A stretch of DNA of 62,833 nt from a virus. Taxonomy: Duplodnaviria; Caudoviricetes. Every line of letters starts with the position of its first letter. Within the stretch, counting starts at the first letter, position 1. The notes below the pieces were generated by a model. That model was not told where the DNA came from and searched no databases. It saw only the letters and a program-made list of their open reading frames with translations. A program made the position numbers and the translations under genes. Shown here one piece after another: positions 6,943-23,659 of the stretch. The stretch spans positions 1 through 62,833 of IMG/VR virus record IMGVR_UViG_3300006752_000028; one strand, 5' to 3'.

Positions 6943-7461
6943 TTACGAAACATTCCTAAGTCTCTTAGTTCTTTTTCCATATTTTTCCTCCATTTCAAAA
7001 TAGAATTCGGTTATGGTACCAGAAGACTCTATTACTTCTTCTTCGTACTCTTCTTTAGTCATTACAAACTCCTTTACAAATAGGTTTCTAATCTCCATTA
7101 GCTTCCTAGCTTCTTCCTTCTCATGATCTTCTACAAGCCTTTTCTTCCTAGCTCTATCAATAGACGTTTCGTTATGAAACTTACCATGATCTATCTCTCC
7201 ACTCTGAGTAGTATTCTCAATATACTTATCATTAATAGTATGGTAAACTAATTCTACTTCAAGCAGGTAAGGACCTGGTTCAAAGTCTCCATTTAGTATT
7301 CTATCTATAAAACTATGACGAGCAGTCAACGGCTTATTCTTAGGCGTATAACTCCTCCACCACATAAACCTATCATAAGGTTTTTTGAAATAGTTCTTAC
7401 TAAGTTTTTTCTCTATCCAGGTCTTAGACCATCTAGGACTATAAGGTAAGTTTACTTGCAT
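6943..7461 (-). CDS. Hypothetical protein
   Basis: 172 aa ORF directly behind its own promoter. Confidence 0.75.
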   Translation of the reverse strand: MQVNLPYSPRWSKTWIEKKLSKNYFKKPYDRFMWWRSYTPKNKPLTARHSFIDRILNGDFEPGPYLLEVELVYHTINDKYIENTTQSGEIDHGKFHNETSIDRARKKRLVEDHEKEEARKLMEIRNLFVKEFVMTKEEYEEEVIESSGTITEFYFEMEEKYGKRTKRLRNVS

Positions 7462-14578: not shown

Positions 14579-15490
14579 CTATTGTCTCAAAGTTTTTTCA
14601 ATTCTATAATCTGTATGTGTAAAGAAATCTGGTATAAATCTTGAATGCGTAGCTCTAATAGGGTTAATATCTAAACCGCCTCGTCTAGTATATAAACATG
14701 CTACCATTAAGTCGTCTGGTTGATAAGCATCCGTTAAATGTTTAAACACCATCTCGCATATCTCTTCATGAAAATGGCTAACAGTTCTATGAGATACTAT
14801 ATACTTAGCTATTGACTCAGGAGAAGGAATATTTTTACCATTCATTCTAATAAAAACATCTCCCCAATCTGGCTGATTAGTAACTCTACAGTTAGATCTT
14901 AGTAAGTTTGATTTTAACTTAATTTCTTTAGATTCTTTAACTACAGTTTCAGTTTCCAATTGAGAAGCATCAGATGAAAAAGCAGTAAAATCTATTAAGT
15001 CTAAATCTGCTATATCTCCTAGATCTTGATACCCTTCAAATGATAATGCTTTACCGTCATCTATATCACTATAGAAACTTACAGTCGTACTTGTTTCTAA
15101 TAATTTATCTAAGTCTTCTTTAACTTTAGCTTCTATCACAGCCATACAATCTGCTGCACAGTCTCCTAATCTAGTCATATTGAAAGAATTTAAATATAAC
15201 TTAATAGATTTAGATTCTACGTGAAATTCTGAATTGGAAGGACAGACTATTTTTAACATACCGGCTACAGGTTGACCTTTAGTTGTAATAGCTGATACTT
15301 CATAACAATTCCAAGTATCTACTCCTACAAAGCTTTTATCAGTTAATCCGTATCCTTCTCTGTTTAAATACCTTGGTACCTTAACTAGTAATTCAGGAGC
15401 GTAAGTATCTTTATACCCGTCTCCTCCTACTTTACCTAAATGTTTAGACGCTATGTCTACTACTGCTTGATAATTTTTTACTTCTGCCAT
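14579..15490 (-). CDS. queF: NADPH-dependent preQ0 reductase, bimodular (type II) QueF
   Basis: DTWNCYEVS, VESKSIKLYLNSFN, LLRSNCRVTNQPDWG, FHEEICE, YTRRGGLDINP. Confidence 0.95.
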   Translation of the reverse strand: MAEVKNYQAVVDIASKHLGKVGGDGYKDTYAPELLVKVPRYLNREGYGLTDKSFVGVDTWNCYEVSAITTKGQPVAGMLKIVCPSNSEFHVESKSIKLYLNSFNMTRLGDCAADCMAVIEAKVKEDLDKLLETSTTVSFYSDIDDGKALSFEGYQDLGDIADLDLIDFTAFSSDASQLETETVVKESKEIKLKSNLLRSNCRVTNQPDWGDVFIRMNGKNIPSPESIAKYIVSHRTVSHFHEEICEMVFKHLTDAYQPDDLMVACLYTRRGGLDINPIRATHSRFIPDFFTHTDYRIEKTLRQ

Positions 15491-15496
15491 TTGTTT

Positions 15497-16060
15497 TTAT
15501 TTATTAATATAATCAATCCACTTTGTTCCTTTTGTATCCGAGTTCGGAAATACAAACGATTTAGTTACATCACCTATAGTAATGATTTTTCGAAATCCTG
15601 AAGGGATAGTAGCACCAGTTGGTAATACTTCTAACTTCCCTTCAAATAGGACTTCTACTCTCACTTTAACTTCTTTTCCAAAAAAGTTTGCTGCGTCTCT
15701 TTCAAAAGACTCTAATTTACTCCATTGACCTCTATTCAATCCTTCATGCTGTAAAGCAGAGTTGATATAAGAAAAGGTTTTGAGTAATGTTTCTTTATCA
15801 CAACTAAAGGCTGCTGCTGGAGCTAGATGACCTTTGTCGTATATATTATTTCTATAATCCTCATTATCTGAGGTTTTAATATCTTTGGGTACCCAGAAAT
15901 CCATACCTTGTCGTGATGCTTTGCCGTTAGGACATTTTACAGTATATTCAACCCAAAGAGGTTGTTGGTATTCTTCACTGTATTCTACAGTATAAAGACC
16001 ATTATCTACTATTTGAGCGACAGATGATACTGAAAATAAAAGTGCTATTATATATTTCAT
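15497..16060 (-). CDS. DNA/RNA non-specific endonuclease (NucA/EndoG family) with signal peptide
   Basis: YDKGHLAPAA, LQHEGLNRGQW, IPSGFRKI; cleavable signal MKYIIALLFSVSSVA. Confidence 0.9.
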   Translation of the reverse strand: MKYIIALLFSVSSVAQIVDNGLYTVEYSEEYQQPLWVEYTVKCPNGKASRQGMDFWVPKDIKTSDNEDYRNNIYDKGHLAPAAAFSCDKETLLKTFSYINSALQHEGLNRGQWSKLESFERDAANFFGKEVKVRVEVLFEGKLEVLPTGATIPSGFRKIITIGDVTKSFVFPNSDTKGTKWIDYINK

Positions 16061-16628: not shown

Positions 16629-17160
16629 ATACTTTCTTTAGAAATATAGTCCACATATATAATGATCTATCTTTAAATACCCCCCACATTTCTTCTTCTG
16701 TAATGTTAAAAGCATTGAATCTTTCTTCTGCTAGTATCTTACCTTCATCTACCCCTGCATCAACTTTATGAAGAACACATCCCATAACTGGGTATTTTCC
16801 TTCAAATGCTCTAATCTGTGGATCTTTTCCTTTAAGTTCTGGGTATTCAGTTATAAGACCTGGATGTCCGTTAAAGATAGAGAACTTTTCGCATACTTCT
16901 TTCGGCATAATACGTAACCAACCATGTAAGGTAATTATTGCTTCCGGAAAATATACTAGTATTTCTTCATAATCCTCTAAAGTAGGTTTATTATTTAAAG
17001 TGAAAAAACCATTTTCTACTATTCTAGGATCTATCTCTCTAAGTCTTTCAGGTCTCTCGTTAGTATAAATTCTATCAGGCCATTTACCAAGTGACTTAGC
17101 TAAATCAGCTATCTCACTACCAGTCTGACTAAAGAATGCTATCCAAGGTTTAGTTGCCAT
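16618..17160 (-). CDS. dpdN: PurN-like formyltransferase (DpdN-like, preQ1 formylation)
   Basis: FFSQTGS, LHGWLRI, NGHPG, HKVDAGVDEGKI; adjacent to DpdA-like gene. Confidence 0.75.
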   Translation of the reverse strand: MATKPWIAFFSQTGSEIADLAKSLGKWPDRIYTNERPERLREIDPRIVENGFFTLNNKPTLEDYEEILVYFPEAIITLHGWLRIMPKEVCEKFSIFNGHPGLITEYPELKGKDPQIRAFEGKYPVMGCVLHKVDAGVDEGKILAEERFNAFNITEEEMWGVFKDRSLYMWTIFLKKVFGL

Positions 17161-17953
17161 TCGTAAACCATTTAAATTTCTGTATATTGTTTTTAATCGT
17201 TCCTAATTGCTTCATATCAATATCTGAGTTTATTAGTTCGAATAGTTTTTGTCTTTCTTTAGACCAAAGTCCATCTGAACCATATGTTATACCTTTTATT
17301 CCGTGAACAACAGGGTTAGATGTATCTAGTGAATAAATCCAATCATAATCTGAATGCTTGTAGAAGCTAAATTCTTGAGGTAGCCCACAACCTAGTAAAT
17401 GATGAGGTTTATGTTTATTAATTATACCGTCTTTAAGTAAATCTCCCAGTAACTTAACACGTCCTAGCATCCAACTAACATACTTGTTAGCATGAGGTAC
17501 AGAAGTGCTGTAATACGAATAATCAAATGATATAGCTATCATATCTACATCTGCTGATTTATTCATATAGTTATAGCAATCTACTATTTCATCATAAGTC
17601 TTACCTTGAACTACTCCTATCTTTCCACTTCCTTCGTATCCAAGACCTTTATTATTCCAATCTTCCATTTGATCGCAAGTTTTAGTAGCGTCTTCTAAAG
17701 CATCAGGAACAATGTACCATGAAGGTCTAAAGTCTTTTACCCATTTATCAAACTTCGCAGCATCAAAAGCTTCTTCTAATTCGAAAATAGAGTTATCTAG
17801 TATAATCTCTCTACCTTTGTCTCTAGCTCTTTTAAATTGATTGAGGTATGCTTCATCTTCCTCAAATAAATGAACTAAAGCATAATCATAATCAGTAAGT
17901 TTTTGAACTTCTTCAAATACCTCTTTGGGACTTTCGTGTGCTATTTTTATCAT
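17150..17953 (-). CDS. dpdA: TGT-fold DpdA-like 7-deazaguanine insertion enzyme (probably DpdA3-type)
   Basis: IILDNSIFE, IVPD, IGVVQG, HHLLG, SLDTS motifs of TGT/DpdA barrel; context among que genes. Confidence 0.75.
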   Translation of the reverse strand: MIKIAHESPKEVFEEVQKLTDYDYALVHLFEEDEAYLNQFKRARDKGREIILDNSIFELEEAFDAAKFDKWVKDFRPSWYIVPDALEDATKTCDQMEDWNNKGLGYEGSGKIGVVQGKTYDEIVDCYNYMNKSADVDMIAISFDYSYYSTSVPHANKYVSWMLGRVKLLGDLLKDGIINKHKPHHLLGCGLPQEFSFYKHSDYDWIYSLDTSNPVVHGIKGITYGSDGLWSKERQKLFELINSDIDMKQLGTIKNNIQKFKWFTNGN

Positions 17954-18907: not shown

Positions 18908-19621
18908 TTAATGTTTACAAATACTTGCTAATTCTATATTCTTATAGAACTCTGCTTTTGCTGAATCTTCGTTTAAGAACGCTCCTGTTAGTTTAGCAGT
19001 TTGCATTGATGCTCCTCTATGCTTAACTCCTCTACAGCTAACACAGTTATGGGTAGCTGATATCATTACTGCAACTCCTAAATTACCTTCACATATCTTA
19101 TCTACTGCATTATGTATAGCTACAGTTAATTGTTCTTGAATAGCTCCTCTTCTACCGAATTGTTCTACTATCCTATTAAGTTTAGATAGTCCTACTACTT
19201 TTCCATCCTCTGAAGCTATATAAGCAATGCTTACATTACCACCGATTGTTTGGTGATGATGTGAACACATCGACTGAACTGGTATATTGCTTTCTTGTAC
19301 TATACCGTCGTATCCGTCTGATGGAAATGCTGTTATACGGTCTAGAGGGTTATACCTTCCGGCCCATAAATCATTAACATATGCTTTAGCTACTCTCATT
19401 GGGGTATCAGATGAATTAGGATCATCTTTATAATCACATCCTAACGCAGTTAAAAACTCTGCGTATGCTTTTGCTGCTCTTTCTATAATTACATGCTTCT
19501 CATGTTCTGTTAACCTTGCTTCAGGTCCTTCTAATTCTTGCTTTGCAGCTAATTGACTTGATATACCATTTGCATATCCTGCTTTTACTAATTCTGTTCC
19601 GTCTATAAACTTTTTAGGCAT
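18908..19621 (-). CDS. folE: GTP cyclohydrolase I
   Basis: DTPMRVAK, SMCSHH, VVGLSKLNR, IQEQLT, HNCVSCRGV. Confidence 0.97.
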   Translation of the reverse strand: MPKKFIDGTELVKAGYANGISSQLAAKQELEGPEARLTEHEKHVIIERAAKAYAEFLTALGCDYKDDPNSSDTPMRVAKAYVNDLWAGRYNPLDRITAFPSDGYDGIVQESNIPVQSMCSHHHQTIGGNVSIAYIASEDGKVVGLSKLNRIVEQFGRRGAIQEQLTVAIHNAVDKICEGNLGVAVMISATHNCVSCRGVKHRGASMQTAKLTGAFLNEDSAKAEFYKNIELASICKH

Positions 19622-19630
19622 AATATTTAA

Positions 19631-19658
19631 TTTGTTTTATTGAGGTTCTACGACTCAT
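19631..19658 (-). ncRNA. preQ1-I-like riboswitch aptamer in folE 5' UTR
   Basis: UGAG-UCGUAGAAC-CUCA-AUAAAACAAA: P1 stem, UCGYAG..AC loop, A-rich tail. Confidence 0.7.
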
Positions 19659-19668
19659 TTGTTAATAC

Positions 19669-19697
19669 AATATACGATTTTTAATTTAATTATCCAA
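19669..19697 (-). promoter_or_regulatory. Promoter TTG-N20-TATATT for folE operon
   Basis: Consensus motif immediately upstream of the aptamer. Confidence 0.75.
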
Positions 19698-20090
19698 ATA
19701 ATCTTGAATAGGTTTTGAATTTTCTTTTTCCCAAGGGTAGACTACCCAGCCGAAATCATCGTCTATTTCTTCTGCATAGTATTCTGGTTTTGCTTTTGAT
19801 GATGTTTTATAGTGTAGAGTAGCAAACTTAGGATTAAACATTTCGTCTCTCCACTTTAAAATTGTATCTCCACTATCTGCTATATCATCTATAATTAATA
19901 ACCTAGGATAGTGGTTACTTCTATACTCCATATATGGAATCTCAAATCGATGAGAATACATAATAGCGAGTATGGTACCTCCTCTGGGTATTCCTGTTAC
20001 ATAGTCTATCTCTCCTTTGCATTTTTCGTGTATAATATCTAAGAGTCTATTGATATCGTCCCACGTTAGAAAAACTTTTTTTACTGCCAT
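19686..20090 (-). CDS. Type I phosphoribosyltransferase (xanthine-guanine PRTase-like)
   Basis: GIPRGG, LLIIDDIADSGDT PRPP loop, WVVYPWE. Confidence 0.9.
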   Translation of the reverse strand: MAVKKVFLTWDDINRLLDIIHEKCKGEIDYVTGIPRGGTILAIMYSHRFEIPYMEYRSNHYPRLLIIDDIADSGDTILKWRDEMFNPKFATLHYKTSSKAKPEYYAEEIDDDFGWVVYPWEKENSKPIQDYLDN

Positions 20091-20254: not shown

Positions 20255-20381
20255 TTTCTATATAACTTTTTAATTTATCTATTAATACTAATACTTCGTC
20301 TGGTTCCATTGTTATAGCACAGCAAGTATTTATGTTTTCTGCTACTTCCTCTAATACCTCTAAAGCTTCATCTTTAGTCAT
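20247..20381 (-). CDS. Hypothetical protein, 44 aa
   Basis: Not in track. MTKDEALEVLEEVAENINTCCAITMEPDEVLVLIDKLKSYIENE; TAATG coupling to queE stop. Confidence 0.65.
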   Translation of the reverse strand: MTKDEALEVLEEVAENINTCCAITMEPDEVLVLIDKLKSYIENE

Positions 20382-21169
20382 TATACCTCTCTTTGATCTT
20401 CAAAAGCAATAATATGAGGTCTCCAAGTCATTCTATATCCGTTATCTCTAACCCAATCAAATAATACTGGGTATGATTTAAATAATGCTTCTCTAGAATC
20501 TCCTGCAGGCATAAACCATACTTTTTCAGATTTAACATCCAAAGTTTTTATACAGTCCATTATTTCAGCTAATGCTTCTTGATCTTTACCGTCCCATACT
20601 GGTTTAATATGGAAATCAGAATGATACTCTATTGACTGCTTAATTGCCTCATAATTAAGTCTAAATTTATTATGACGTTTTACCATTCTCTCATCTGTAA
20701 TTGCACCTTGAGGAGTTTCTACTCCAACGACTGGAACAGAATTAGAAAACTTAGGGCTAATAGATAACAAATTAATAGGGTAATCTGTGGGTAGGAAATG
20801 ACTACCTTCAGTTTCGATAGTAATAAAGATATTATTTTCATGTGCAAAATGTGTTAATTCGTTTACTAAAGCTGGATGCATAGTAGGAGAACCTCCTGTC
20901 AACATCATCTCTTTTATATGAGGATTCTTTTCGTACATCGCAATTATATCTTTAAAATTGAAGTCTCCTTTTTCCGGGTGTATACTTGTATACCAACTAT
21001 CACACCATCCTCCTTCTCCGAAGTAACATCTATGGGTACATCCTGTAGTTCTTATTACAACTGTTGGGTAACCTGCTCTTGAACCTTCTGATTGTACTGC
21101 TGTATATATTTCTACGATAGGTAGGTTTTTATCGTAATCTTCTATTCTCTTTAATTGCTTGTGTGCCAT
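20381..21169 (-). CDS. queE: 7-carboxy-7-deazaguanine synthase (radical SAM)
   Basis: EIYTAVQSEG, IRTTGCTHRC...WCDS, LTGGSP, IETEG, SISPK. Confidence 0.93.
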   Translation of the reverse strand: MAHKQLKRIEDYDKNLPIVEIYTAVQSEGSRAGYPTVVIRTTGCTHRCYFGEGGWCDSWYTSIHPEKGDFNFKDIIAMYEKNPHIKEMMLTGGSPTMHPALVNELTHFAHENNIFITIETEGSHFLPTDYPINLLSISPKFSNSVPVVGVETPQGAITDERMVKRHNKFRLNYEAIKQSIEYHSDFHIKPVWDGKDQEALAEIMDCIKTLDVKSEKVWFMPAGDSREALFKSYPVLFDWVRDNGYRMTWRPHIIAFEDQREV

Positions 21170-21189: not shown

Positions 21190-21678
21190 CTACTCCTCGT
21201 AGATTGATGAATTTTTATCTGCTTCCCAACATTCAACTTTGGTAACTTTTACTCTACCTCCTCCAGTTAGTTCCATTCTTTTGTTAAAATGATCAAATAC
21301 TAATTTAGCACAAGATTCTGCTCCCATTGAATCCATAACCCTTAAAGCACATAGTCCTAATTCCTCCATGTATTGGAAAGTTTCTAATTGAGGATCATCT
21401 TTTTCTATTAGTAGAGTGTGATCCCACATATGGTTCATCCAATCTTTTAAACCATTACCGGGTGTTGGTTCAGCATCAGTTGATTTAAACCCTCCGTAAT
21501 CCATAATCCAATTCATCTCATCTAATTGATTTTCTTCTAGTGGTTCTTTAGATTCAAACCATACTTTAAATTTTAAAGCATATCCGTGAAGTAATTCACA
21601 ATGTGAGTGTGCAGCTTTATGCTGTCTTAGTGCTACTGAGTAATTATCAAATAGCTTTGTTGATTTGTATGTTCCCAT
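21190..21678 (-). CDS. queD: 6-carboxytetrahydropterin synthase
   Basis: HCELLHGY, MDYG, WDHTLL, AES.A, VECWE. Confidence 0.92.
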   Translation of the reverse strand: MGTYKSTKLFDNYSVALRQHKAAHSHCELLHGYALKFKVWFESKEPLEENQLDEMNWIMDYGGFKSTDAEPTPGNGLKDWMNHMWDHTLLIEKDDPQLETFQYMEELGLCALRVMDSMGAESCAKLVFDHFNKRMELTGGGRVKVTKVECWEADKNSSIYEE

Positions 21679-21688
21679 AATTTTTATT

Positions 21689-21946
21689 TTAAACTAATTC
21701 TTCTCCTATTCCTACTATTTCTGATAGTATAAGCAAAATAGCAGCTATATCTATACTCCACCATAATGCAGCATACCCTAATATACGGATACCTGATTTG
21801 ATGAAGCTAATTTGTTGATGTAATTTTGGATCTGGAATTTTATGATCATTGATCTTAATTCCTGTAAATTCTTTACCTGTAGAATGCGAACCTTCTCTGT
21901 CGTATAGTTCGTCTAGGATTTCTTTTTCTTCTTTTCTTTTTATCAT
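21689..21946 (-). CDS. Small membrane protein, first gene of the riboswitch-led queD operon
   Basis: Hydrophobic C-terminal hairpin ISFIKSGIRILG...LSEIVGIGEELV. Confidence 0.75.
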   Translation of the reverse strand: MIKRKEEKEILDELYDREGSHSTGKEFTGIKINDHKIPDPKLHQQISFIKSGIRILGYAALWWSIDIAAILLILSEIVGIGEELV

Positions 21947-21948
21947 AT

Positions 21949-21978
21949 TCGTGTTTTTATAGTGGTGCTACGACACTG
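21949..21978 (-). ncRNA. preQ1-I-like riboswitch aptamer upstream of small membrane gene-queD-queE
   Basis: AGUG-UCGUAGCAC-CACU-AUAAAAACACGA ending 2 nt before the AUG. Confidence 0.7.
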
Positions 21979-21997
21979 TTGTGCTATATATTTATAC

Positions 21998-22026
21998 AAT
22001 ATACGAAACTTTTATTTAAGAACCAA
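21998..22026 (-). promoter_or_regulatory. Promoter TTG-N20-TATATT for queD operon
   Basis: Consensus motif. Confidence 0.75.
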
Positions 22027-22686
22027 CATTTTTTCATGTCCTATTATTAAAGTTGGATCGACATATATATCGTAACCTTTTTTTGTTATCATTCTACAGA
22101 ATGCTACATCTTCCATAGTAAATTCTTTAAATGAAGTATCTCCTACCTTAAATTCTTCCCAAAGAGGTTGAAACCATGGATACTCTAGTGATTCAAATAC
22201 ACCTTTTTTAATTAATACCCAACCAAACCCAGTATACTCTACTTTAAATGGTTTAGTTCTTTTATTTATTAACTTATCATCTAAAAATTCAAAAGAACCA
22301 TTCTTTGCATAGTGCTCTTTGTCCCATTTTTCCACTGTAGCGTAGTTGGTATTGTTCTGAGTTTTGTATATTCCGGAAGCAATATCTTTATTCATGTTAA
22401 GTAACTTAATAAAGTCATTAACTTCAAATACCATATCTGAATCTATCCACATTATGTAATCGTAATCTATTTGACCATCGAACGGCATTTGGTTTTTACC
22501 TCTAACTGATGCTCCTCCTAAACATTGATTTCTAACGTAGTATAGTAGTGGACTATAACTATTTGACAGAATTGGAGTAATTCCATACTTGGGTAAGTAT
22601 TGTAGAAGATTACTCCAACTAGTCAAAAAATTATTTGAAAAAGTTCGTCCCGGTAGACAAAATACTATTTTTAATTGTTTTTGCAA
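22012..22686 (-). CDS. GT-A fold glycosyltransferase (GT2-like)
   Basis: YDYIMWIDSDMVF (DxD), YTGFGWVLIKKGVFE, EDVAFC, IGHEK; TTG start. Confidence 0.85.
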   Translation of the reverse strand: MQKQLKIVFCLPGRTFSNNFLTSWSNLLQYLPKYGITPILSNSYSPLLYYVRNQCLGGASVRGKNQMPFDGQIDYDYIMWIDSDMVFEVNDFIKLLNMNKDIASGIYKTQNNTNYATVEKWDKEHYAKNGSFEFLDDKLINKRTKPFKVEYTGFGWVLIKKGVFESLEYPWFQPLWEEFKVGDTSFKEFTMEDVAFCRMITKKGYDIYVDPTLIIGHEKMLVLK

Positions 22687-22704: not shown

Positions 22705-22848
22705 TTAAATATTACGGTGTCTTCTCATACCGTCCCATTTCACTTTTTTTGTTTTACTCAACATCCTTAATTTATCTATACGATTATTAAGTTTATTCCT
22801 TTCAGAATTTAATTGAGTATTTCCGTTTGTTTGATCACTAATTGCCAT
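22705..22848 (-). CDS. Small basic hypothetical protein, 47 aa
   Basis: Not in track. MAISDQTNGNTQLNSERNKLNNRIDKLRMLSKTKKVKWDGMRRHRNI; overlaps queC stop. Confidence 0.55.
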   Translation of the reverse strand: MAISDQTNGNTQLNSERNKLNNRIDKLRMLSKTKKVKWDGMRRHRNI

Positions 22849-23659
22849 ATCCTGCGAGTACTTTTTCAACATGAGCTTTTGCAACTTGGTAACTAACTAC
22901 ACCTGTTTCATCAGCATATCCAACAGGATCAGGTCTACCTAATTTAATAAAAGCCTCAATACGTTCTACTGATGAAGCTGATTTATAATCACTATACCAT
23001 TCCCAAGCATTTGCTTCAGGTCTGCTGTAAACTTTCATTGGTTTATAAGAGGTATTTGTTCTTCTATACACCTCGTCAAAGTCTAAATCTAGTACCTCAC
23101 ATAAATTTAATCCATCTTGTAAGATACCAAACTTATCAGTATCTAAATAAGGAGTAAAGTAACCTACTCTATCAGCATCCCAATTCCCCATTCTAAAAGC
23201 TGCATCATCTGCATCTCTAAATTCCTGTCTGCAATCAGGGTAAACTGCATGATCACCAGCATGAATACCTAAAGCAATATCACAAACACCTTCTGTTTTA
23301 TTTGCTACAGATAATGCTACTGCTTGTGTAATTGAAGCAAACATTTTATTTCTATTAGGAACAACAGTTTCTTTCATATTCTCTTGCTCGTAATGTCCTT
23401 CTGGTACATCATCTCCGCCTTCTACTAAAGCTGAATCTAGTAAATCTACTAAACCATCTAATTTAATTTGACGATAATTTACTTTGTGACCTTTACTTGC
23501 AAGGTAATCAATTAATGATTGAGCTCTTTCTAGCTCTACTTTATGTTTTTGACCGTAGTCAAATGAGATACCTGTTACTGTATCATACTTCTCGATAGCT
23601 CTTAACAATAGGGTGCTGCTATCCATTCCACCACTTAAACTTACTACACAATGTGCCAT
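22838..23659 (-). CDS. queC: 7-cyano-7-deazaguanine synthase
   Basis: SLSGGMDS, FDYGQKH, TVVPNRN, YPDCR. Confidence 0.96.
   Translation of the reverse strand: MAHCVVSLSGGMDSSTLLLRAIEKYDTVTGISFDYGQKHKVELERAQSLIDYLASKGHKVNYRQIKLDGLVDLLDSALVEGGDDVPEGHYEQENMKETVVPNRNKMFASITQAVALSVANKTEGVCDIALGIHAGDHAVYPDCRQEFRDADDAAFRMGNWDADRVGYFTPYLDTDKFGILQDGLNLCEVLDLDFDEVYRRTNTSYKPMKVYSRPEANAWEWYSDYKSASSVERIEAFIKLGRPDPVGYADETGVVSYQVAKAHVEKVLAGYGN

Follow-up and report, generated by a model that had tools for sequence, protein, structure and literature searches.

The described systems closest to the leader element analysed here are the preQ1-I riboswitch aptamers (RF00522). PMC8752633 gives the ligand contacts of their alpha site as U6, the specificity C, A30 and the floor pair G5-C18, and describes an A preceding the specificity C as the mark of the type to which the Bacillus and Thermoanaerobacter aptamers belong. 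Riboswitches are described as rarely found in phage genomes (PMC5473149), the reported precedents including glutamine aptamers in cyanophages and pelagiphages and c-di-GMP-I riboswitches in Clostridioides prophages (PMC5473149, PMC9004378). In the DNA of vB_FspM_immuto, a Flavobacterium phage, every G is reported to be replaced by 7-(formylamino)methyl-7-deazaguanine, or formyl-dPreQ1 (PMC10516641). The word "riboswitch" is absent from that paper and from PMC6884629, the two main papers on 7-deazaguanine DNA modification in phages, and no earlier description of the element was found in a literature search whose reach excluded most subscription papers.

The element and the gene cluster around it

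The window, meaning the whole 62,833-nt stretch of DNA that was analysed, is by sequence comparison a fragment of a phage with immuto, phiST and phi13:1 (the latter two Cellulophaga phages) among its relatives; the best match has 74% nucleotide identity across 37% of a 6.4-kb query. The genes around the element lie on the minus strand in the order queC (22838-23659), a 224-aa ORF annotated as glycosyltransferase-like, the element itself, orf85 (85 aa, 21689-21946), queD (21190-21678; 6-pyruvoyl-tetrahydropterin synthase family, PF01242, E 6e-12), queE (20381-21169; radical SAM, PF04055, matching QueE of immuto), a 57-aa ORF and a phosphoribosyltransferase gene (19686-20090; PF00156, phrog_8995), which is the last gene before the folE leader. 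Downstream, on the same strand, follow a sister element (19631-19657), folE for GTP cyclohydrolase I (18908-19621; PF01227, E 1e-42), a 67-aa ORF, mazG and the gene for a 267-aa protein (17150-17953) that matches a protein annotated DpdA in immuto. Genes for a DpdN-like formyltransferase, a thymidylate-kinase-like ATPase and a non-specific DNA/RNA endonuclease (15497-16060; PF01223) come next, and the cluster ends with queF (14579-15490). FolE, QueD, QueE, QueC, QueF, the DpdN-like formyltransferase and the DpdA-matching protein make up the gene set of immuto; since that set serves the replacement of all G by formyl-dPreQ1, free preQ0 and preQ1 would be intermediates of the pathway. The PF01223 endonuclease and the small PF00156 phosphoribosyltransferase lie inside the modification cluster.

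The hairpin and tail of the candidate element were read on the minus strand at 21977-21949, with the AUG at 21946. Stem P1 pairs AGUG (DNA AGTG, 21977-21974) with CACU (DNA CACT, 21964-21961) around a 9-nt loop, TCGTAGCAC in DNA and UCGUAGCAC in RNA (21973-21965), which opens with U5 directly after P1 and contains G10, A12 and C13, the putative specificity C. An A-rich tail L3, AUAAAAA (DNA ATAAAAA, 21960-21954), occupies positions -8 to -14 from the AUG and is followed by CACGA (21953-21949), the putative 3' strand of P2 with an invariant C-A, whose C would pair with loop G10 by analogy with preQ1-I. Written out from the end of CACU, the leader reads AUAAAAACACGA, then AU, then the AUG at 21946-21944. 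In the sister copy before folE, TGAG (UGAG, 19657-19654) and CTCA (CUCA, 19644-19641) enclose the 9-nt loop TCGTAGAAC (RNA UCGUAGAAC, 19653-19645), and AUAAAA and CAAA follow; the leader 3' of CUCA reads AUAAAACAAA onward, with the ATG at 19621.

This layout of stem, loop, tail, AU and AUG is exactly the one proposed earlier from the letters of the DNA by a model working without database searches (hereafter the sequence-only reading), which had also noted that the loops of the two copies are one base apart and that both variable stem pairs are compensated. The same reading described the element as leading a queD-queE operon; the element does head that operon, while the gene that starts at ATG 21946 is orf85 and queD comes second. 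Its statement that the element occurs in the window only behind the promoters of que-pathway genes agrees with the result of R1, a model built from phage sequences only, which finds just these two sites in 62.8 kb: with filters off it scored 54.7 bits at the orf85 leader and 50.4 bits at the folE leader, and the next best match reached 13.7 bits. The description of the two as independent copies was too generous, as they may be paralogues and so are not fully independent evidence; stronger evidence comes from related phages, including those that carry FolE2 (see below).

Taken within the window, the element does not stand out. The loop 9-mer has 34 matches with up to one mismatch, against 27.7 +/- 6.0 expected, which is not above chance. 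The hairpin of the folE copy has a predicted energy of -1.5 kcal/mol, in the orf85 copy P1 is not even part of the minimum-energy fold, and neither leader has folding-energy support (z from -0.28 to +0.51). With the loop not above chance and the hairpin energetically marginal, the significance of the element derives from its conservation in other phages and not from the window itself.

A promoter-like 13-mer, TCGTATATTGTAT, occurs in the window only at 21994-22006 on the minus strand, before the orf85-queD leader, and at 19665-19677, and thus ahead of both copies. The shorter box YKTATATT lies ahead of at least 13 other minus-strand genes, 7-36 nt from the ATG. Preceded by a T-rich run, it stands before start codons on the minus strand at, for example, 50941, 45541, 42701, 41666, 39247, 33344, 31506, 16607, 14049, 13094, 10158, 7704 and 7476. 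The T-rich run with YKTATATT looks like a general promoter box of the phage, and it differs from the host promoter consensus, given in PMC6847099 as TTTG / TANNTTTG. At the two que leaders the distance from box to ATG is 47-51 nt, the extra length being the hairpin. R1 found no motif at any of the at least 13 other genes with the box in the window, so the hairpin is not a generic companion of the box. Four metatranscriptome runs yielded contigs over parts of the stretch, including ones that span the folE leader; 19571-19711 and 21949-22094 are covered with 0-1 differences, and 19571-19711 with none. These contigs are compatible with transcription of both leaders and no proof of it, as starts, strand and expression cannot be read from them and DNA carry-over is possible.

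Conservation, stem covariation and gene context

A pattern scan of IMG/VR in which loop and tail were fixed and the stem was free returned 110 sites. All four stem pairs form in 23 of the 24 sites that lie ahead of FolE-, orf85- or QueE-type ORFs, and three of four form in the other one; among the remaining 86 sites a single one has four pairs, about the 2% that chance predicts. A separate set of 80 loci was fetched by FolE protein similarity alone and then searched with R1. The motif stands directly before folE in 44 of them, and 14 more matches lie about 2.2-2.8 kb upstream. In the other 36, folE lacks the motif; the element can thus be dispensed with, and it has evidently been gained or lost repeatedly. 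In L137-L140, L143, L146 and L152, among others, the promoter box stands straight before folE and the hairpin is absent; L137 keeps the orf85 copy.

Stem covariation was assessed in a homology-derived alignment, A2, of 58 matches that reduce to 35 distinct rows. P1 pairs in 139 of 140 cells, with no one-sided changes. Two of the four pairs change on both sides, the outer pair being AU in 14 rows, GC in 10, UA in 10 and other in one, and the third pair UA in 23 and AU in 12; the observed covariation was reached by none of 500 shuffles, and its score at the true P1 was 0.551 compared with at most 0.244 in slid controls. The closing G-C pair of P1 is present in all 35 distinct rows. Independent compensatory events are not numerous, perhaps four or five, and the half-sites occur as AGTG/CACT, GGAG/CTCC, TGAG/CTCA, TGTG/CACA and GGTG/CACC. 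In the loop, U5, A9, G10, A12 and C13 are invariant in 35 of 35 rows, the variation falling at positions 6-8 and 11 (UCGUAG, UCACAG, UCGGAG, UCGAAG and UUGAAG). The covarying stem that the sequence-only reading had seen in two copies is thus borne out as a conserved RNA motif across phages. The motif is a real, conserved and pathway-specific leader RNA, placed ahead of genes with which phages of marine Flavobacteria make 7-deazaguanine for their DNA.

The genes that follow the motif were tabulated for 175 R1 matches in related viral contigs, many of which are overlapping fetches of the same contigs (97 distinct 48-mers); two further pattern scans had contributed 112 and 61 extra stretches. The downstream gene is orf85 in 86 of the 175 and FolE in 75. 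A lipoprotein-like ORF of 197 aa, followed by orf85-queD-queE, comes next in six; QueD and QueE follow in two each and FolE2 in one. Two matches precede truncated ORFs, one of them orf85-like and the other the start of a 107-aa ORF that is orf85-like when complete, and one match runs into the contig end. Copies before unrelated genes, which had been named beforehand as evidence against a functional element, were looked for among these 175 matches and none was seen. A separate regular-expression count gave 112 distinct sites, 107 of them in 7-deazaguanine contexts and five chance sites. All copies of the motif lie on the coding strand.

In some related phages the motif precedes FolE2 (PF02649, E 1e-65). 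FolE2 is unrelated to FolE and has the same activity, yet it carries the motif, so the association follows function and not ancestry. Loci where FolE2 stands in place of FolE with the same leader motif kept are L370:3067-4062 (minus strand) and L294:8367-8942 (plus strand). The 197-aa ORF, with its lipoprotein-like N-terminus, lies between the element and orf85-queD-queE at L306:9683-10276 (plus strand) and L262:9087-9677 (minus strand), occurs also in L255, L264, L277 and L322, and has no convincing Pfam match. The commonest gene directly under the element, orf85, belongs to a virus-only family with a conserved, hydrophobic C-terminal half; it has no Pfam or PHROG match, and the Atlas places it beside virus-only clusters to which no family is assigned. 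It may be a component of the 7-deazaguanine pathway that has so far gone unrecognised. Searches by tblastn of the FolE loci, with 3 kb on either side, were uninformative on a link of the motif to DpdN, QueF or QueC, the flanks being too short; DpdN was found in 32 of the 44 loci with the motif and in 18 of the 36 without it.

Outside phages, one strict pattern was run over 185,579 species genomes and gave 13 loci with 14 sites, of which only the two in L204 fit the motif. L204 is a 5.9-kb contig in a 'Verrucomicrobiales' MAG, where the two copies are separated by 2.3 kb and followed by starts of the orf85 and FolE types, in the same arrangement as in the phage, and it is most likely a mis-binned phage fragment in a bacterial MAG. 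The Clostridia sites L198, L201 and L202 were rejected; a stem with one G-U wobble can form there, but the C-A is missing and the nearest 100 nt hold no ORF of at least 50 aa. Among 151 Bacteroidota genomes, R1 gave a single match of 29.5 bits with an E-value of 0.023 per genome, which is chance level over 151. No credible cellular copy was thus found in the 151 sampled Bacteroidota genomes or in the strict-pattern scan of the 185,579 species genomes, and RF00522 did not exceed its cut-off in any sampled Bacteroidota genome. With neither the motif nor RF00522 in the sample of the host phylum, there is no cellular counterpart on which an assignment could lean.

Relation to preQ1-I aptamers

By score, the motif is not a member of the Rfam PreQ1 family. 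RF00522 (gathering cut-off 39 bits) gave no gathering-level match in the window, and no PreQ1 row appeared at E up to 10 on leader slices of 251, 56 and 61 nt. Searched over the whole record, RF00522 lists only 7395-7416, at 10.5 bits, and reports neither copy. When both leaders were run through cmscan with the full set of 4227 Rfam families (E up to 10), no preQ1 family of any class came up. The Rfam rows for DUF805, SNORD73, DGCR5, HOTAIR_2 and Teg49, at 7.7-16.3 bits, were discarded as noise. As a positive control, RF00522 scored above its cut-off in 22 of 101 Bacilli genomes.

When set beside 30 genuine preQ1-I sites from Bacilli, the phage copies are collinear with them, in the order G / U...AG.AC / C...A-rich tail...CA. 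None of U5, C13, the A-run and the C behind it varies in A2 or among the 107 sites, and all fall in the same columns as in the genuine aptamers. With roles as described in PMC8752633, the invariant phage positions correspond to the ligand contacts of preQ1-I. A reverse test was also carried out on 90 kb of Bacilli DNA, where seven of 19 R1 matches at E up to 10 fell exactly on true preQ1-I sites; the scores there were at most 18.9 bits, every match being individually non-significant. The label "preQ1-I-like aptamer" given by the sequence-only reading therefore holds for collinearity at the ligand-contact positions and does not hold for membership of Rfam PreQ1 by score, and the ligand is putative.

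The tail is 7 nt long in 90 of the 107 sites (range 6-9), and C then A follow the A-run in all 107. This C-A keeps a nearly fixed distance from P1 but lies anywhere between 4 and 13 nt from the AUG, which makes it part of the motif rather than of the start site. The pairing of tail ACGA with loop UCGU, which had been thought able to block initiation, exists in the window and is not conserved: of the 107 sites, 62 allow G7:+2 and 29 allow C6:+3; loop variants of the UCACAG type break it. The register to which it belongs (U8:+1, G7:+2, C6:+3) was rejected because it fails a shuffle test. No register of an extended P2 beats shuffles across the 39 distinct loop/tail combinations from the 107 sites, the best being N8:+3, which is Thermoanaerobacter-like and scored 0.56, compared with 0.49 after shuffling (the observed value was equalled or exceeded by 666 of 5000 shuffles). 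What we infer by analogy is that the tail C pairs with loop G10 as the P2 of an H-type pseudoknot. G10 and the tail C are both invariant, hence there is no covariation either way for their pairing, and, with no extended register passing the shuffle test, the pseudoknot rests on these two invariant bases.

Proposed mechanism, alternatives and known systems

The reading we favour, with a probability of about 0.65, is that the element is a translational OFF switch sensing preQ1 or preQ0, in the form of a miniature variant of preQ1-I. Two phage operons, those for the synthesis of the 7-deazaguanine base used in DNA hypermodification, would then carry the switch in their leaders, each leader being transcribed from the generic promoter box of the phage. 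When no ligand is present, the 4-bp stem would be barely stable and the A-rich leader would be open to the Shine-Dalgarno-independent ribosomes of the host. As free preQ1 (or preQ0) builds up, it would pair with the loop C that adjoins the stem and stack on the invariant G-C closing pair; the A-tract would then dock along the stem, while loop G10 would find its pairing partner in the invariant C that comes after the A-tract. The resulting compact pseudoknot would end 3-9 nt before the AUG and would hide adenines at about -6 and at -8 to -14. Translation of orf85-queD-queE would fall, as would that of folE through the sister copy, and the result would be a feedback that limits the drain on GTP once the 7-deazaguanine pool is full. 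A separate expression platform would not be needed, as the docking of the tail on the stem would itself hide initiation determinants.

Such a mechanism would fit what is described of the host phylum. Bacteroidota ribosomes are reported not to use Shine-Dalgarno pairing, and initiation in Flavobacterium johnsoniae to benefit from low structure and from adenines at -3, -6, -12 and -13 (PMC6847099). The A-run lies at -8 to -12 in orf85-type leaders, and the commonest spacing from tail C to AUG, 6 nt (38 of 64), puts the invariant A after the tail C at -6. Because the A-run and the invariant A sit at favoured adenine positions, a docked tail would hide determinants of initiation. Both preQ1 and preQ0 are intermediates of the pathway, and free formyl-preQ1 is a conceivable alternative ligand. 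A variant of this scheme that we hold only tentatively, and think improbable, is that the element forms a riboswitch class of its own, restricted to phages, and that with about 28 nt, counted from the stem to the tail C-A-N-N, it is the smallest known natural aptamer. It would be derived from preQ1-I or have converged on it, would be tuned to preQ0 or free formyl-preQ1, and would hide Kozak-like adenines, rather than a ribosome-binding site, from the Shine-Dalgarno-blind ribosomes of Bacteroidota.

Readings without a metabolite were also weighed. The motif could be an RNA operator for a phage protein, either a dedicated repressor or a pathway enzyme acting on its own mRNA, its likeness to preQ1-I being a coincidence or a relic; we consider this unlikely. 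The small uncharacterised protein orf85 is most often encoded directly downstream, but the motif is also kept before the non-homologous FolE2 and before QueD or QueE without an intervening orf85, and none of the cluster's proteins emerged as a candidate RNA binder. As is often the case at protein sites, six loop positions out of nine (U5, C6, A9, G10, A12 and C13) vary little or not at all; the invariant positions nevertheless match the ligand contacts of preQ1-I one for one. Likewise, although the motif is not recognised by Rfam, the phage-only model R1 lands preferentially on true preQ1-I sites. A stem too weak to stand alone, a pseudoknot without covariation and the rarity of riboswitches in phages, as described in PMC5473149, are points that a protein operator would accommodate.

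It is considerably less probable that the motif is a leader element independent of any ligand, in which a 5' stem-loop and an A-rich tract determine how stable the mRNAs of highly expressed pathway genes are or how much they are translated at the basal level. One would not expect a generic stabiliser to be confined to one pathway, and at least 13 other genes of the window stand behind the same promoter box with no motif at any of them, even though the presumed start of the transcript is a few nucleotides away from the hairpin and A-rich leaders are normal in Bacteroidota. The absence of the motif before folE in 36 of 80 related loci would suit an element of this kind, whereas an invariant loop and an invariant C-A kept at a fixed distance would not. 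Least probable of all, and in our view hardly tenable, is a DNA operator, that is, an inverted repeat for a transcription factor just downstream of the promoter. The position between a promoter-like box and the start codon and the 4-bp inverted repeat would suit it; but the half-sites change and yet stay complementary, which is a signature of RNA pairing and not of base-specific DNA recognition, the conserved part is an asymmetric 9-nt spacer with a one-sided tail, and every copy is on the coding strand. Both the leader element and the DNA operator fit poorly because the distribution is exclusive to one pathway and the complementarity of the stem is kept through base changes.

If the RNA does bind preQ1 or preQ0, as the favoured OFF switch would require, it would be a widespread riboswitch seen only in phage sequence of the collections searched, and the first known regulator of phage 7-deazaguanine DNA hypermodification; very few phage riboswitches have been reported in surveys (PMC5473149). 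It would also be a reduced form of the riboswitch aptamer that is already the smallest, and a test case for riboswitch control of translation in a phylum without Shine-Dalgarno pairing. The motif in addition flags orf85 and the 197-aa ORF as uncharacterised genes tied to the 7-deazaguanine pathway.

Among known systems, operators of the T4 RegA or gene 32 type are phage translational operators bound by proteins, and they act on many unrelated genes or on the gene of the regulator itself. The motif resembles them as a short, weakly structured, A-rich leader element adjoining a phage start codon, and differs from them in being confined to one metabolic pathway and in mirroring a small-molecule aptamer. 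With the known phage riboswitches it would share the role of a phage-borne metabolite sensor; those, however, are ordinary members of cellular classes, whereas the motif occurs in no cellular genome examined and is tied to a phage DNA-base pathway. The preQ1-II and preQ1-III riboswitches have the same presumed ligand and serve the same kind of genes, but have larger and different folds.

The nearest likeness is to preQ1-I, and within it to the type with an A before the specificity C, which includes the Bacillus subtilis and Thermoanaerobacter aptamers. Both RNAs have a stem closed by G-C with a U right after it, an AG in the loop, an A-C before the 3' strand and an AUAAAAA(A) tail that is followed by C; both stand in the leaders of 7-deazaguanine synthesis genes, so near the start codon that the aptamer itself can be the expression platform. 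The phage motif differs in its stem of 4 bp and loop of 9 nt, compared with 5 bp and 12-14 nt in the 30 Bacilli examples, and in an invariant A after the tail C where preQ1-I has UA(A/G)G. It is undetected by RF00522 and occurs only in phage sequence among the collections searched, its leaders have no Shine-Dalgarno sequence to hide, and it is tied to a DNA-modification pathway instead of the supply of queuosine for tRNA.
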